IMG/VR virus record: IMGVR_UViG_3300010373_000007
Span: 4,792 to 68,791 of that record
DNA from: a virus
Length of the DNA: 64,000 nucleotides
Reading direction: 5' to 3' (one strand)
The number at the start of each line of letters is the position of its first letter. Positions within the stretch are counted from its first letter, which is position 1. Both the position numbers and the translations under genes were made by a program. The notes beneath the pieces were generated by a model that saw only the letters and a list, made by a program, of their open reading frames with translations, was not told the origin of the DNA and did no database searches. Shown here piece after piece: positions 8,962 to 38,981 of the stretch.

Positions 8962-9885
8962 TCACCGGATGGTAAGCGCCCTGTCGTCCGAGATCACGGC
9001 CTTCTCGGGTGCCGTCCCGGTCTGGGCCGTCACCGTGAGGTACTTCGTCCCCGTCGGGTTGGAGATCGTCGCCGCGAGCGACAGGCGCGTTGGCGTCCCG
9101 CTCGCCGTTGTCACGGGAGATCCGACCACCGATCCGTCCGCGTTCCCCTTCGTCCCGCCGACGCGGACGCGGTATGTCCCGGTCGCGCCGCCGGTAGTGT
9201 AGAAGTCGGCGATCAACTCGATGGTGATCGTCGCCGGGAGCGAGTCGAAGTCGATCCAGAACTGGTCGACGACACTCTCCGTCCCGGTATCGTCGTAACC
9301 CTCGCTGGTAGCCAGACGGCTCGTCCACTGCGGCGTCCCGCTGGCGCCGGCGCTTCCCTTCTCGCCCTGGGGGCCAGCGGAACCTGCCGGCCCGACGACA
9401 AGCTGGACGCCGGGGGCGGCGGGCGTGCCGCTGGTCGCGGCCTGGAGGCTCACGCCGTCGATCTGGAACAGCGCCACGGTGGCGTTCTGGGCGAGCATCA
9501 CCAGCGAGAAGGTCTGCCCGGTGACCAGCGTCTCCTCGATCCTGATGGTGCAGGCGCCGGAGGTCGGATCGTAGGTGAGCTTGACCGCGCAGCTGGAGAC
9601 CCGCTCGTCGTCCTCGATCGCGTGCCCGATGTTCGCCTCCCAGACGGCCAGGTCGCGGGTGACGACGATCGTCTGGTTGAGCAGGTCGAAGATGTCGCAG
9701 GAGACGTAGTTGGGGTCGTACCAGAGGCCGCCCGGCGGGGTTGTGATCCGGCGGATGTGCGCGTTGCCGAGGTTGCGCAGTCCCGTCGCCTGACCCCAGA
9801 CGGGTCCGGGACCGTTGTTGTCGACGTCCAGATCGGTCCCGTAGATCGACGGGTCGAACGGAGGAGGGACGAGGGCGGCGGTCAC
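8962..9885 (-). CDS. gp25/GPW-like baseplate wedge protein with collagen-like stretch and C-terminal extension
   Basis: GTG at 9885 overlaps the upstream TGA (GTGA); the track start 9945 is the alternative. LRNLGNAHIRRITTPPGGLWYDPNYVSCDIFDLL resembles the gp25 family core. Contains GPAGSAGPQGEKGSAGASG, six G-X-Y triplets. Confidence 0.6.
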   Translation of the reverse strand: MTAALVPPPFDPSIYGTDLDVDNNGPGPVWGQATGLRNLGNAHIRRITTPPGGLWYDPNYVSCDIFDLLNQTIVVTRDLAVWEANIGHAIEDDERVSSCAVKLTYDPTSGACTIRIEETLVTGQTFSLVMLAQNATVALFQIDGVSLQAATSGTPAAPGVQLVVGPAGSAGPQGEKGSAGASGTPQWTSRLATSEGYDDTGTESVVDQFWIDFDSLPATITIELIADFYTTGGATGTYRVRVGGTKGNADGSVVGSPVTTASGTPTRLSLAATISNPTGTKYLTVTAQTGTAPEKAVISDDRALTIR

Positions 9886-11102
9886 GGGGCGATTCTCACC
9901 TTGGTCGAAAGGAAGAGGTTGGCTCCAGCGCTGCTTGATGCCCATCCTGCCATCAGGCTGGCCAGGGTGGTGAAGAACTGGATCGCCCCAGGATCAACGG
10001 TCGGGACAGCGAGCGCAGCGGTCGCGGCGGCACCGATGGCGGCAAACAGCGTGTCCTCGGCCCCGCGATAGGGCGCCCCGACCACCGCTGGCGGCGCAAC
10101 GGCGTCGCCCAGCAGGAGCTGCGACAGGACCTTGATGACGCGAGTGGTCGGCACGGCGTCGCCCGTGAACCCCATCGCGTAGCGCCGCGAGGGATCACCC
10201 GCCCAGCCCACCGCCACCTTGCCTCCCTGCACGCCGTCCACGGCGTCCCCCGCCTGCGCCAGGAGCGGCACGGAGGCGACCTGCGGGACGCCAGGGACGT
10301 CCGGGCTTCCATCCACCGATCCGCCCGCCTGGGCGACCACGCTGGCCAGGTACAGGAAGCGGTAGTCGATCCCGGCGGGTGTGGCCCGGACCAGCGCCCG
10401 GAACGCCGCCACCAGCCTGTCTTCCCGCGGAGAGGGGCGGGAGAACCAGACCTGCGTCCGCATGGGCCCCTCGTGGGGGATGTCATCCTGGACGGTGTCT
10501 ACCTGCCCGCCCTCGAAGGTCGTCGCCACGAGGGCCACGGGGGCGTCTAGGGCCACCTCCAGCGCGTTGTTCTCGATCCAGCGGTGCGTGACCTCGTACG
10601 TCGCGGGCTGGAGGCTGGAGGCCGGGAAGGCATCCGTCCCCACCCAGACCGTCCCGTCGTCCAGGACGCGCCAGGCGGCGCCAGGCGCGCCGGCGGCGAG
10701 CACCTCAGAGATCAGCTCCCCCACGGGCCTGGCGGTCGTCGTCCAGGCCGGCAGGTCCGCCCCGAGCACCCCCGCGTCGGCCGTTCCCGAGAGCTTCTCC
10801 CCCGCGGCGCCCAGGAGGTCGCCCAGAACCTGACCCACGCTCGGCGCGGTGTAGTCCTGGGGACTGGCCAGAGTCCCCATCCCGCCCGCGCCGGCCAGGA
10901 TCTGGAGTTGGTTGACCCCCACGAACTGTCCGCCGCGGACGACGGTGCCCGTCATCGTGCGCGCGCCAAAGACGACCGTGACCGGTCCGGGGCCGATCTG
11001 GGTAGGATCGTCCACGCGGCAATCGAGCTGCCACACGCCCTGACGCGGACTGACCAGCCGCGCGGAGTAGGCCGCCAGGCCGTTGACCGTGACCAGGGAC
11101 AT
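9882..11102 (-). CDS. Baseplate hub / central spike candidate
   Basis: 406 aa, lying between a tape-measure-proximal gene and the gp25-like gene. Call is by position. Confidence 0.5.
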   Translation of the reverse strand: MSLVTVNGLAAYSARLVSPRQGVWQLDCRVDDPTQIGPGPVTVVFGARTMTGTVVRGGQFVGVNQLQILAGAGGMGTLASPQDYTAPSVGQVLGDLLGAAGEKLSGTADAGVLGADLPAWTTTARPVGELISEVLAAGAPGAAWRVLDDGTVWVGTDAFPASSLQPATYEVTHRWIENNALEVALDAPVALVATTFEGGQVDTVQDDIPHEGPMRTQVWFSRPSPREDRLVAAFRALVRATPAGIDYRFLYLASVVAQAGGSVDGSPDVPGVPQVASVPLLAQAGDAVDGVQGGKVAVGWAGDPSRRYAMGFTGDAVPTTRVIKVLSQLLLGDAVAPPAVVGAPYRGAEDTLFAAIGAAATAALAVPTVDPGAIQFFTTLASLMAGWASSSAGANLFLSTKVRIAP

Positions 11103-20206: not shown

Positions 20207-20749
20207 CTAGGTCGAGGTGGTCACGTCGCCGACGTACTTGATCCGCATCCGGCCAACGGTGCCGGTGGTGACGTTGTCGACCCAACCCGTGCCCGTAAGC
20301 GCGAGCCGCGTGGCCGAGGTGGCGCCGCCCTCGATGGAGCCGAGCGCGCCCGCGGATCCGTTGCCGGCGCCGCCCGACTGGAGGCCGTAGCACTGCTGCC
20401 GGGCCTTCACGGTCTCCGCCGCAAGGGCGAAGACCGTCCCGTCGATGCAGATCGGAACCGACTTGTACTGGGCGAAGTTGACGGTCGACAGGGTGTCGGC
20501 GTCGCTCGACGAGGTCATCGTCGGGAGGCGGACCGAGATCCCCGTGAACAGGTCCGTGCTCGCGTGCTGCGGGCGGCACTGCTCCGGGTCATCCCCGATG
20601 GCCCAGAAGACGGCCACGCCGAAGTCGATGGCGGTGGCGGACAGGTTGATGCGCGAGATGATCTGCGCGGTCTCCAGGTCAGCGACCTGGCCCGCGATCC
20701 CCGCGCTCAGGAGCGCGCCGCCGGTGGTGGAGAGAGTTGCCTGGGACAT
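20207..20749 (-). CDS. Head decoration/structural protein (DUF2190-like)
   Basis: Internal ATG 20749 (MSQATLSTTGGALLSAG...), 180 aa. Lies between the scaffold and capsid genes. Confidence 0.55.
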   Translation of the reverse strand: MSQATLSTTGGALLSAGIAGQVADLETAQIISRINLSATAIDFGVAVFWAIGDDPEQCRPQHASTDLFTGISVRLPTMTSSSDADTLSTVNFAQYKSVPICIDGTVFALAAETVKARQQCYGLQSGGAGNGSAGALGSIEGGATSATRLALTGTGWVDNVTTGTVGRMRIKYVGDVTTST

Positions 20750-35346: not shown

Positions 35347-35829
35347 TCACTGCGTCCCTGTAGCGGCGAGTTGCTCGACCATGACGTTGACGGCGGAAAA
35401 CCGCGCCGTGCCGCGCGCTGGCCCCAGGAAATGGAGCACTTCGATCGCCTCGATGATCCGCCCCATCCCAGACCGCGCGTAGAGGGCTGCCTCCCCGGCG
35501 ATGGCTGAGAGGAGCTGGCCACGCTGGGCCCGGCAGTCGGCGGGGAGCTTCTCGTGCCCCAGGACGAGGAGGCGGTGCCCAGAGCGCGCCTCGGTGTAGA
35601 GCCGACCAACGGCGGCCAAGTCGGGCGAGGGGCCGAGGTCGGCGCGGCGCTCGTACCCGACGCCCCGGACGCCCAGGAGCGTCTCCAGGCGCTCGGCGCC
35701 GAATCCGGGGGTGCGGACCTGCTTCGGGCGGAGGTCGACGACCCGGGAGACGCGGTGGCGCGTGACGAGGCGCAGGAGGTTGTCCGTGGTCGAGCCCTCG
35801 CAGCCCCAGGATAGGATCGCTCCGGTCAT
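35347..35829 (-). CDS. DUF488-family protein
   Basis: ATG 35829 in an ATGA overlap, 160 aa. ...VSRVVDLRPKQVRTPGFGAERLETLLGVRGVGYERRADLG... fits the DUF488 pattern. Confidence 0.65.
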   Translation of the reverse strand: MTGAILSWGCEGSTTDNLLRLVTRHRVSRVVDLRPKQVRTPGFGAERLETLLGVRGVGYERRADLGPSPDLAAVGRLYTEARSGHRLLVLGHEKLPADCRAQRGQLLSAIAGEAALYARSGMGRIIEAIEVLHFLGPARGTARFSAVNVMVEQLAATGTQ

Positions 35830-36407
35830 GCCTTCGGCGCCCTCCGGGCCGTTTCCTCGCGCTGCGCCTGGGCGATGAAATTCAGGACGCCTTTGTCCTC
35901 CTCGGGCCATGCGGTCGGGAGCGGCGTCCCGTCGGTCTTGAAGAACGCGAACAGCGAGGCGAGGTCGCTCATCTCGCAGAGGACGTCCTCGGCCTCATGC
36001 GTGAAGGGGATCGACGAGACGAGCCGGAAGATGCCGTGGGGGTCCGATCCATCGACATCGAAGACCGCGATCGCGTCCTGGATGAGGTTCGTCGGGCACT
36101 GATGGGAGTGGATGAAGTAATCGTCGTGGTCGCTTGGCGTCGCGGAGCTGTACTGGTTCCGCAAGACGAAATAGACATCGCCGATCCGGACGAGGTAGAG
36201 GCGCCCCTTCCGCTCTCTGGTCGAGAAGGTCACGTCGGCGCCGTCCGCCGTCACGGTCCCGCGGACCTCCTGGTTGCAGTCGGTATTTCGACACGACCAC
36301 GGACCGAAGGGGGAGCCCAGCTTCAGGTGGTCGATCGACCCGAAGTGACCACCGCACGCTTCGCACGCGATCCGATGTATCACCTGGATCTTCGCCGCGA
36401 TAGTCAT
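35826..36407 (-). CDS. Hypothetical zinc-binding protein
   Basis: 193 aa. CEACGG...CRNTDC near the N-terminus. ATGA-coupled. Confidence 0.55.
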   Translation of the reverse strand: MTIAAKIQVIHRIACEACGGHFGSIDHLKLGSPFGPWSCRNTDCNQEVRGTVTADGADVTFSTRERKGRLYLVRIGDVYFVLRNQYSSATPSDHDDYFIHSHQCPTNLIQDAIAVFDVDGSDPHGIFRLVSSIPFTHEAEDVLCEMSDLASLFAFFKTDGTPLPTAWPEEDKGVLNFIAQAQREETARRAPKA

Positions 36408-36604
36408 CCGCGCGCCTTTACCCGGCCGACGATGTTCCGCGGACCAGCGGCCGCGCGCCCGGCCTTCACGCGGTCGTCCAGGTCGGCGCACATCTCTGCC
36501 TCGCGGGCCGCGTCCCGCCAGCGCCCGGTCGCCACCGCAAGCTTGAGGCGTGTCTCGGCGGTGCTCCTCGCGACCCTGAACTTCGTCTCCTCATCGTCGG
36601 ACAC
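36404..36604 (-). CDS. Small hypothetical protein
   Basis: GTG start inferred. 66 aa, VSDDEETKFRVARSTAETRLKLA.... Start uncertain. Confidence 0.35.
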   Translation of the reverse strand: MSDDEETKFRVARSTAETRLKLAVATGRWRDAAREAEMCADLDDRVKAGRAAAGPRNIVGRVKARG

Positions 36605-37481
36605 GGCGGACCTCCTCGATGTACGGATCGTACAGCGGCCCCTTGGCGGCGCCAGGGACGGCGTAGCTCGCATCGGCGTACTGGATGACCTCCCCGGCGT
36701 CGTCGAGCTTGAGCGACGAGTAGTGGTAGAGGACCACGTCGCAGAACGTCCACGGCGGGCCGCGCCGGAAGATGCGGGGCGGATCGCCGGGCTCGGCCGC
36801 CAGGATCCCATCGCACGAGGCGCGGAGGTTCCAGGGCGCGAGGTTGACGCCGGGATTCTTGATGACGTGCGCCGGGATGATCTCGTCGATCAGCGCCAGC
36901 CAACCCTGGTCCCCGAAGATCACGCGCCCGTCGAGCAGCTCCAGGAACCCCTGGTAGGCCCACTGCTCGGCGTGGTTTGCCATGAAGATCGCCGGCGCGG
37001 GGTCGCGGAACCACGCCCAGCCGCCGTTGAAGCGCCCGAACTTCCCGTGGCTCTCCTGCGTCACGCCCTGGAGCCCGCGCGCGGCCGGCGCGAAGCGGTG
37101 CTCCGTCAGGGCCCAGGGCGCGGGAGACACCTCCAGCTCTTGCCAGAGGGCCTCCGGCGACGACCAGAACCACATGTCCCCGTCGATCGCCATGATCTGA
37201 CCGTGCGCAGAGGCGAGGTCGGCGAACCAGCGCCAGCGCACCGAGCAGTTGTACTCGTTCGGGTTGCGCGGGCGCCCAGGCAGCCGCGCGAGGTGCGGGT
37301 ACCTGGCGACGAGGTCCGACCCGCGCGTGAAGATCAGCTGGCGATCCTCGGCGGTGATGTCGGCGATCGGCTCGTAGTCGGTCGCCAGGACGTGCAGCGC
37401 GAACGGGCGGCAGTGCCGCTTCATCGACTCGTAGAGGACGCATGCCTGCCAGGCCGGGGCGGCGGTGGCGTAGTGCCTCAC
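36591..37481 (-). CDS. GT8-like nucleotide-sugar glycosyltransferase
   Basis: 296 aa. IMAIDGDMWF (DxD), RFNGGWAWF, FGDQGWL and NLAPWN follow the order of GT8 motifs. Confidence 0.65.
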   Translation of the reverse strand: MRHYATAAPAWQACVLYESMKRHCRPFALHVLATDYEPIADITAEDRQLIFTRGSDLVARYPHLARLPGRPRNPNEYNCSVRWRWFADLASAHGQIMAIDGDMWFWSSPEALWQELEVSPAPWALTEHRFAPAARGLQGVTQESHGKFGRFNGGWAWFRDPAPAIFMANHAEQWAYQGFLELLDGRVIFGDQGWLALIDEIIPAHVIKNPGVNLAPWNLRASCDGILAAEPGDPPRIFRRGPPWTFCDVVLYHYSSLKLDDAGEVIQYADASYAVPGAAKGPLYDPYIEEVRRVRR

Positions 37482-37729
37482 GGCGAGAACCCCGCGCGCG
37501 CGTTCGCGGCCTTGGCCCGATCGTTCCTCGGCTCCGTGCTCCAGATGCCGTGGGCGGGGGCGAGCCGCGGGAAGGGAACGACCTCGTCGGCCTCACGCAT
37601 CGCCAGGATGTCCTCCAGGTCGCGCGCGCCGTTATGCTCCGCGTCCCGGTGCAGGATCAGGCAGAACTCCGCGCCGCCGGGTCCGAGGAACTCGGCGGGA
37701 AAGTCCGCCCCGCACACGCCGCATGTCAC
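37478..37729 (-). CDS. Hypothetical small protein
   Basis: 83 aa, CGVCG near the N-terminus. Coupled on both sides. Confidence 0.45.
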   Translation of the reverse strand: MTCGVCGADFPAEFLGPGGAEFCLILHRDAEHNGARDLEDILAMREADEVVPFPRLAPAHGIWSTEPRNDRAKAANARAGFSP

Positions 37730-38604
37730 GGCGCGCGCCGCTCCTGCTCGTTCAGCCAGTCGATGTCGGTTTGGCCCATGGCCTGGACGTTGGCGAGGTA
37801 GGCCGACGTCTGCTTACGCTCCTCGAAGTCCGCCTCCTTCGAGTAGGAGATGTGCAGCGACCGCTCGCGGCTCCAGCCGGTGCAGGACTGAGCCGCCCAG
37901 GCGAAGGCGGAGTCGTCCTTCGTCCCCGTCAGCCAGGCGACCTCGCGCGACATCGGCCCGAGCTGCTCCGCGGTCCACCCGCGCGACCCCCAGATGTTCG
38001 CGATCAGCTTGGTCGGGCGCGCCGCCGCCAGGTACGCATCGCGGTGGTAGAGGTCCCACGCCTGCTCGGGGGGCGTCACCTGGACCGATGGGTGGTCGAT
38101 CCACCAGGGGACCTGGAGAACCATCGATCCATTTATGTGCGGCCGACCGCCCATGTAGGGACCCGTCACGGACTTGCCGGCGGCGATCGTCCGCTCGTGC
38201 TCCTCCAGCAGCCGGTCCAGCCAATCGGCGCGCAGCGGGCACCCGTCGGCCTCGGCAAGGAACACGGCGGAGCGCGCGAAGCCGTCCCGCCAGAGCCCCG
38301 CCAGGTGGTCGAGCGTCCCGCCGGCCAGGGCGTTGCAGCCGGCGGGGTGGCCCTCTCCATCCCGGGCCGAGCGCGCGACCATCACCGGGAAGCGCTTGGA
38401 CAGCTTCTCGACCGCGTCGGGGAACGCGATTTCCGCGCGCGTCGTGTCCTTGCGGCAGATCAGGAGCATCGTGACGTCGCCGCGCGGGCGCGGCTCGATC
38501 GCCGCCAGCAGCCGTGCCAGCCGGAGCGCCTTGGCCTGGTCCCCGGCCCAGAACTGGATCGCGACGACGAGGCCCTTGGGTCCGGCAGGCAGGCGGAGGC
38601 CCAT
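37726..38604 (-). CDS. Putative second transferase (GT-A-like?), function unknown
   Basis: 292 aa. VVAIQFWAGDQ..., GHPAGCN and FLAEADGCPL (DxD-like). Fold assignment is tentative. Confidence 0.5.
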   Translation of the reverse strand: MGLRLPAGPKGLVVAIQFWAGDQAKALRLARLLAAIEPRPRGDVTMLLICRKDTTRAEIAFPDAVEKLSKRFPVMVARSARDGEGHPAGCNALAGGTLDHLAGLWRDGFARSAVFLAEADGCPLRADWLDRLLEEHERTIAAGKSVTGPYMGGRPHINGSMVLQVPWWIDHPSVQVTPPEQAWDLYHRDAYLAAARPTKLIANIWGSRGWTAEQLGPMSREVAWLTGTKDDSAFAWAAQSCTGWSRERSLHISYSKEADFEERKQTSAYLANVQAMGQTDIDWLNEQERRAP

Positions 38605-38948
38605 CAGTCCACCATCTCCTCGGGAATCTCGACCTCCTTGATGGTCCCCTCCATCGGGTCATTCTCCAGGCCAAGTTCGACGAGCCGCTGGGTTGCCTGA
38701 TGGGCGTGCTCGAAATCCTCGCGGAACGGGATGCCCTTCAGCTTCCCCTCGATCCGGTGGCGCTTGACCATCTTCGGCGGCGCAGGGACGAGAACCGTCA
38801 TTCCCCAATCGGTCTTGCGGGCGACGAGCCTGCCGCCCTTGCCGTCGGTGATGATGACGCCGGTTACGTTGCCATCCGTCTTCTCCAACTCGACGCTCAC
38901 CCCGGCGAGCGAGACGTCCGACAGGTTCTTCACGGTCTTCATGTTCAT
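38604..38948 (-). CDS. Hypothetical protein
   Basis: ATG 38948 preceded by GGAGGG. 114 aa. Confidence 0.55.
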   Translation of the reverse strand: MNMKTVKNLSDVSLAGVSVELEKTDGNVTGVIITDGKGGRLVARKTDWGMTVLVPAPPKMVKRHRIEGKLKGIPFREDFEHAHQATQRLVELGLENDPMEGTIKEVEIPEEMVD

Positions 38949-38971
38949 GGCTGGGTTTCCCTCCGCCACGA

Positions 38972-38981
38972 ACATTACGCC
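38972..38981 (-). promoter_or_regulatory. GGCGTAATGT box
   Basis: In the gap between 38989..39348 and the next gene, 26 nt before ATG 38948. Confidence 0.35.

Follow-up and report, generated by a model that had tools for sequence, protein, structure and literature searches.

A predicted GT-A glycosyltransferase pair in an uncultured contractile-tailed phage and its possible link to a tagged head protein

To our knowledge, glycosylation of the phage virion has been demonstrated by experiment in only a few mycobacteriophages, where it blunts recognition by antibodies. In the mycobacteriophage Che8, gp108-110 are responsible for virion O-glycosylation, and the account given in PMC11256854 places the glycan at the C-terminal ends of structural subunits (Freeman et al. 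2023, Cell Host Microbe 31:1216). The Che8 acceptors end in ...KTGS (capsid) and ...SDGS (major tail protein). Here we describe a gene cluster, gpA to gpG, of an uncultured, high-GC phage represented by the complete 68,791-bp IMG/VR record IMGVR_UViG_3300010373_000007, of which a 64-kb stretch (the window) was analysed. An earlier note on this DNA had called the cluster a possible glycosylation module, with either virion proteins or nucleic acid as the target. We found that two of its products, gpB and gpD, are predicted to be GT-A-fold glycosyltransferases. By analogy with Che8, and at slightly less than even confidence, we propose that gpB primes and gpD extends an O-glycan on the C-terminus of the phrog_563 head protein of this phage.

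Two predicted GT-A enzymes encoded side by side

The core of the cluster consists of three genes:

gpB, 37726..38604, minus strand: 292 aa; predicted glycosyltransferase with a GT-A fold, from an almost purely viral family that lacks annotation.
gpC, 37478..37729, minus strand: 83 aa; N-terminal CGVCG; lies between both transferases, with a 4-nucleotide (nt) overlap on each side.
gpD, 36591..37481, minus strand: 296 aa; predicted GT8/GT77-like GT-A glycosyltransferase.

The AF2 model of gpB, with a mean pLDDT (per-residue model confidence) of 89.5, has a GT-A fold, and a fold search (VIA) matched it to dozens of GT-A enzymes at Z-scores of 15.5-12. The best matches were inverting GT-A enzymes of the GT31 type, including B3GalT5/6, Fringe, C1GalT1 and a chondroitin synthase domain, at Z 15.5-14.8 over ~207 residues. 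A DxD-like motif is common to them and gpB, where it takes the form E-x-D and follows the fourth strand. The likeness to GT31 is one of fold: identity to these structures is 8-15%, neither sequence searches nor Pfam connect the two, and GT8 structures follow within ~1 Z unit, at Z 14. A fold search of BFVD returned generic viral GT-A matches alone (TM score ≤0.55), and searches of PDB sequences with gpB and gpD, both single-sequence and profile, gave no match or chance matches. There are 37 gpB homologues, none of them named, in which E118, G121, H156, N158, D184, H187 and K229 are invariant and D120 is conserved at ≥90%, which fits the E-A-D-G-C motif of gpB. The model and these residues indicate that gpB is a GT-A-fold glycosyltransferase with a DxD-type acidic motif. 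This agrees with the earlier description of a second transferase-like protein with an EADGC motif and a Rossmann-like N-terminus.

The gpD family is much smaller, with only 10 homologues among 5.8 billion proteins. In these 10 members D100xD102, H128, N152xG154, D191-Q192 and H253 are invariant; across 24 more remote relatives D100, D102, N152, G154 and Q192 are still invariant and H253 is conserved at ≥90%. The corresponding residues of LgtC, which we take to be D103/D105, N153, D188-Q189 and H244, are similarly spaced. The AlphaFold model of gpD has a pTM (global model confidence) of 0.84, and its top Foldseek matches were XXYLT1, LARGE1, LgtC, glycogenin and the Skp1 galactosyltransferase GlyT (E 3e-7 to 5e-6), with 12-15% identity to solved GT8 structures and TM scores of ~0.5. 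With regard to family, gpD did not match Pfam PF01501 (Glyco_transf_8) at E≤0.1, PF01501 occurs in only 11-27% of the members of the Atlas clusters nearest gpD, and five of the 24 remote relatives matched PF03407 (Nucleotid_trans, GT77-like; best E 2e-5). Compared with CAZy GT8 (LgtC, glycogenin, XXYLT1 and the xylosyltransferase domain of LARGE1), gpD is therefore alike in its GT-A fold and differs in leaving PF01501 unmatched and in having remote relatives that touch PF03407 instead. By modelled fold and motifs, we assign gpD as a GT8/GT77-like GT-A glycosyltransferase, probably with a retaining mechanism. The earlier call of a GT8-like enzyme with DxD, NGGWAWF and FGDQGWL motifs was right about the motifs, key residues of which are invariant in the family, and about the fold.

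Cellular relatives of gpD, at 25-32% identity, lie in polysaccharide loci together with genes of the Wzx flippase, Bac_transf, DegT aminotransferase, epimerase, Wzt and Wzy_C types, so gpD probably descends from sugar-to-sugar transferases. In both gpB and gpD the metal and catalytic motifs are intact, and both appear to be active enzymes. With both large proteins predicted to be glycosyltransferases by fold and motifs, the glycosylation label stands. Both are also predicted to be soluble: a Kyte-Doolittle scan found no membrane-like segment in any of the seven cluster proteins (maximum 19-residue mean <1), as the earlier note had stated. Scans against Pfam, PHROGs and NCBIfam gave nothing above threshold for gpA to gpF.

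We compared the locus with ~150 related phage fragments, in which open reading frames (ORFs) were called with a GC3-weighted gene caller. The gpB family was present in 77 IMG/VR loci and is far commoner than gpD, relatives of which were found in 12 viral loci, with gpB adjacent in five of the six close ones. Homologues of gpC lie between gpB and gpD in two loci, L004 (53% identity) and L005. From this recurrence, the conserved unit is gpB-(gpC)-gpD, with gpA, gpE, gpF and gpG as neighbours, and the treatment of six genes as one functional module was not upheld. The 30 Atlas clusters nearest gpB share no common Pfam family, and the nearest three are 94-96% viral. One natural fusion, P0047, joins an N-terminal PF03407 transferase domain to a gpB domain. 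We rejected its reading as a gpD-gpB fusion, since the N-terminal domain fails to align with the gpD profile. The cluster region had no blastn match in 50,697 phage records.

Other arrangements occur in the gpB family. In P0032 the gpB domain is fused to an HNH_3 endonuclease domain, and 46% of the members of one Atlas cluster, made up of viral proteins of 548 aa, combine it with a GH130 mannoside-phosphorylase domain. One gpB copy, in the 75-kb record IMGVR_UViG_3300046740_000358 (G028:C1:63144-63914), has a single in-frame TGA, which may reflect a sequencing error, pseudogene status or recoding.

Head-module setting and a candidate acceptor

The 68,791-bp record has direct terminal repeats and represents a complete genome of ~69% GC, with nearly all genes on the minus strand. 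PHROG matches identify a contractile-tailed phage, and no tRNA genes were found in its DNA. In the order of transcription, an exonuclease, a primase/helicase, a ParB-like gene and an N6/N4 DNA methyltransferase precede the cluster (38975..35347), which is followed by genes for a pentapeptide-repeat protein, TerL, portal, Mu-F-like head protein, protease, phrog_563 protein, major capsid, sheath, tape measure and baseplate. The nearest genome-collection matches of gpD are the contigs L014 and L015, binned with a Myxococcota (42%) and a Pseudomonadota (35%) metagenome-assembled genome (MAG), and one gpB homologue (P0039) comes from a Polyangia MAG. Because of these relatives, the host may be Gram-negative with a high GC content and not an actinomycete.

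Relatives with the same head module (portal phrog_146, Mu-F phrog_324, protease phrog_530, phrog_563 and capsid phrog_264) revealed a preferred position of gpB. Among the eight loci that show both portal and Mu-F genes, seven have gpB between them, on either strand and frequently in tandem arrays of 2-4. TerS/TerL lie a short way downstream of the pair in the window and in four relatives, and in L094 the pair stands between TerL and portal. In a large mid-GC phage group (L120-L168, GC 0.48-0.60), gpB belongs to a conserved block that runs from TerL through 701-, 448- and 305-aa proteins, gpB, a 249-aa protein, a nucleotide-sugar epimerase and a 426-aa protein to a collagen-like tail fibre. The 305-aa protein has a faint Anp1-like (GT62) match, and neither PHROG nor Pfam matched the 701-, 448- or 426-aa proteins.

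In L102, L105, L111, L169, L254 and L255, portal and Mu-F are separated by three or four gpB paralogues in tandem. Such arrays suggest step-wise building of a glycan by duplicated enzymes.

The head module of the window also encodes a candidate acceptor:

phrog_563 head-module protein, 20207..20749, minus strand: 180 aa; between the protease and major capsid genes; proposed acceptor.

This protein matched phrog_563 ('virion structural protein') at E 1.4e-20, and its gene has a good ribosome-binding site. Its C-terminus reads ...RIKYVGDVTTST (ending ...DVTTST), and no other plausible ORF of the window has ≥3 Ser/Thr among the last 5 residues; two further frames pass this count but overlap other genes.

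To read the C-termini of phrog_563 proteins more widely, we gathered 79 related loci with the capsid gene as anchor and ran the gpB profile over each record in full. The proteins fell into two classes. In the short class, 27 distinct proteins end 0-5 residues past the last conserved strand (G-x-V-G-x-V-R-I), and the profile found no gpB in any of their records, including seven complete genomes, one of which is MW202455.1. The complete Vibrio phage MG592425, in which gpB was likewise not found, has a tail of 7 residues, DGNLVTA, with no Ser/Thr cluster. In the extended class, 37 proteins carry an extension of 9-11 residues that nearly always ends in Ser/Thr (RTTT, RTTS, KTTT, TLTS, TLTT, PYIS, LYS), the exceptions being one clade ending in NY-x-(T/A)-Y and one pair ending in RTA. 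We detected gpB in 22 of these 37 records, including all three that are ≥97% complete, and every record without it is ≤86% complete. For complete genomes, the extension was present in 3/3 with gpB and in 0/8 without gpB. This co-occurrence is suggestive of a link between gpB and the tagged head protein. A control set of 80 loci anchored on TerL contained a phrog_563 homologue in only one, and its loci are too distant to serve.

According to our proposal, the gpB-(gpC)-gpD core would be a cytoplasmic, late-acting pair that decorates the phage's own particle. The component common to all such phages, gpB, would place the first sugar on a Ser/Thr of the exposed ...DVTTST extension of phrog_563. 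The GT8-like gpD, with its polysaccharide-building cellular relatives, would then lengthen the glycan from host UDP-sugars. Here we infer which protein accepts the sugar, which enzyme acts first, which sugars are used and what benefit, if any, might result, such as shielding, stability or adsorption. This is the best-supported interpretation of the GT-A folds and motifs, the viral character of the gpB family, its head-module location, the PF03407-gpB fusion, the co-occurrence with the extension, the Ser-ended acceptors of the Che8 system, and the lack of DNA-modification starters and of an integrase in the complete genome.

Several observations weigh against it. Some relatives (L102, L105, L103) carry gpB on the strand opposite to the head genes, which looks more like moron insertion than co-regulation. 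One 86%-complete record has a phrog_563 protein ending in ...NMTTT and no gpB was found in it. A maximum-likelihood tree of the phrog_563 core needs only two changes to account for the extension, so the co-occurrence with gpB amounts to about two independent events and is not separable from shared descent. In the window, the pair lies 16 kb from the proposed acceptor gene and adjoins DNA methyltransferase genes, and the major capsid, sheath and tube proteins have no Ser/Thr tag. The pairing of enzyme and acceptor is one that we infer from the comparison of loci. In addition, hhalign of the gpB and gpD profiles with Che8 gp108, gp109 and gp110 gave probabilities <1%, and tblastn of gpB and gpD against the 50,697 phage records gave no match.

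Alternative targets of the pair

The pair might instead modify a glycan of the host envelope, such as the core or O-antigen of lipopolysaccharide, an exopolysaccharide or a wall polymer, from the cytoplasm during infection. The effect would be either to hide receptors and so save progeny from adsorbing to infected cells or debris, or to shut out competing phages. We consider such a role unlikely, though it has points in its favour: the remote cellular relatives of gpD lie in polysaccharide loci, and the orientation of some gpB genes is that of independent morons. Envelope glycans are modified from the cytoplasm by soluble GT-A enzymes such as TarP and LgtC, and LgtC, RfaJ and the prophage-encoded TarP are soluble or peripheral GT-A proteins, so the lack of a membrane span is compatible with this role. 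The earlier note had concluded from that lack that O-antigen conversion of the Gtr type is unlikely. For Gtr systems proper, which belong to temperate phages and comprise the membrane proteins GtrA and GtrB and a serotype-specific Gtr, the conclusion stands: the cluster has no hydrophobic segments, and no tyrosine or serine integrase or recombinase was found in the complete genome. As an argument against any surface-glycan role it is too strong, because soluble GT-A enzymes do act on envelope glycans and the cellular relatives of gpD are found in polysaccharide loci. What speaks against an envelope target is that the gpB family is almost purely viral and placed in head modules, that the tagged head protein would be left unexplained, and that classical lysogenic conversion, including seroconversion, is unlikely because no integrase is encoded. 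In a further reading, which we find quite improbable, the pair would act on another component of the infected cell, namely a host protein, part of a defence system or a small molecule, for example an anti-phage metabolite akin to an antibiotic. The accessory region downstream resembles a counter-defence arsenal according to the earlier note, and some GT-A enzymes inactivate proteins or nucleoside drugs, with AvpGT among the fold matches of gpB. Nothing specific favours this reading, however, and a fixed head-module position across many phages would be unexpected of a counter-defence gene.

Glycosylation of the phage DNA by gpB and gpD, as an anti-restriction hypermodification, appears very improbable to us. 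The location of the cluster would suit it: a ParB-like gene, the N6/N4 DNA methyltransferase and a Dam-like methyltransferase (phrog_111) adjoin it, and the earlier note reported a MazG-like gene nearby. The base J glucosyltransferase and the phage TET-associated transferases are also predicted GT-A enzymes. However, the complete 68,791-bp genome encodes no known route to a sugar-accepting base: we found no protein of the Tet/JBP (PF12851), thymidylate-synthase (PF00303), C5 methylase (PF00145) or TGT/DpdA (PF01702) type, which makes DNA glycosylation less likely. The earlier statement that no hydroxymethylase would supply an acceptor thus extends to the whole genome. In relatives, moreover, gpB is linked to head genes and not to replication genes. 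Of the two options that had been left standing, glycosylation of virion proteins has gained support, from the gpB genes in head modules and the extension that tracks gpB, and glycosylation of DNA has lost it.

Neighbouring genes and comparison with known systems

The remaining genes of the cluster are as follows:

gpA, 38604..38975, minus strand: 123 aa; coupled upstream of gpB (1-nt overlap); no family match.
gpE, 36404..36604, minus strand: 66 aa; coupled at both ends.
gpF, 35826..36407, minus strand: 193 aa; putative N-terminal Cys4 zinc ribbon and a C-terminal domain with HSHxCP...DPHG.
gpG, 35347..35829, minus strand: 160 aa; divergent, DUF488-like.

All seven minus-strand genes, 38975..35347, are chained stop to start, with overlaps of 1 nt (gpA/gpB), 14 nt (gpD/gpE) and 4 nt at each of the other junctions (gpB/gpC, gpC/gpD, gpE/gpF and gpF/gpG). 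The gene structure is thus as had been claimed for six coupled genes, with the additions that a seventh, gpA, is coupled upstream and that the true start of gpF is the ATG at 36407, not 36410. A gpE homologue occurs in L006 only, after gpD, and L006 also has a relative of gpG (28% identity); for gpF and gpA, no relatives were found in the gpB/gpD loci examined.

The gpF family is a real one, with at least 346 cluster representatives at E≤1e-3 and invariant C15, C18, C39, C44 (the Cys4 motif), H102, C104, D122, H124 and G125; no Pfam family or annotation was found for it. The zinc assignment comes from the four cysteines, with no family match behind it, and the second motif, HSHxCP...DPHG, looks like a further metal or catalytic site. 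The match of gpG to PF04343 (DUF488), at E 1.2e-3 and 19.9 bits, falls below the Pfam cut-off of 22.2 bits and is limited to the N-terminal half (profile positions 4-60 of 121). The only other gpG homologue found is 71% identical and has no precomputed Pfam domain, and the DUF488 call was therefore not sustained. We treat the DUF488-like gpG and the putative zinc protein gpF as unrelated neighbours that appear particular to this phage lineage.

Elsewhere in the window, a collagen-like run of seven G-x-y triplets lies at 9331-9393 on the minus strand, in a tail-fibre-like ORF (8962-9945). Collagen-type glycosylation had been raised by collagen glycosyltransferases among the fold matches. With this single seven-repeat stretch in the window, and with no search made for a lysyl hydroxylase, it was dropped.

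Extending the proposal from this phage to the family is more doubtful, and we put it forward tentatively: gpB may represent a large, unannotated, phage-specific family of protein O-glycosyltransferases that recognise short, Ser/Thr-ended C-terminal extensions of phrog_563. Tag-directed virion glycosylation would then be widespread in uncultured phages well outside Actinobacteria, with an origin independent of the mycobacteriophage enzymes. If true, this would be an independently evolved variant of a known phenomenon, with enzymes that have no detectable homology to those of Che8, and the sugar-coating of particles would extend to more phages than is now assumed. A viral protein family that lacks annotation in Pfam, PHROG and NCBIfam would gain a function, and metagenomes could be searched for such systems by a sequence rule, a transferase plus a tagged structural protein. 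The compact enzyme-plus-tag pair would be directly testable by co-expression.

Among virus-encoded systems, the capsid glycosyltransferases of giant viruses, such as A64R of PBCV-1, resemble gpB, as proposed here, in being cytoplasmic GT-A enzymes that act on the virus's own capsid, and A64R (2p6w) matched gpB at Z 12.0. That match is one of general fold alone, and the glycans of chloroviruses are N-linked and their hosts eukaryotic algae. The closer system is Che8. Our locus differs from it in having a small head protein as candidate acceptor in place of the major capsid or tube protein, and in belonging to a phage that is contractile-tailed, uncultured and high in GC. In both, the transferases are phage-encoded, soluble and not accompanied by genes for sugar-nucleotide synthesis, and Ser/Thr residues stand at the extreme C-terminus of virion proteins, as KTGS and SDGS in Che8 and as TTST in the phrog_563 protein.

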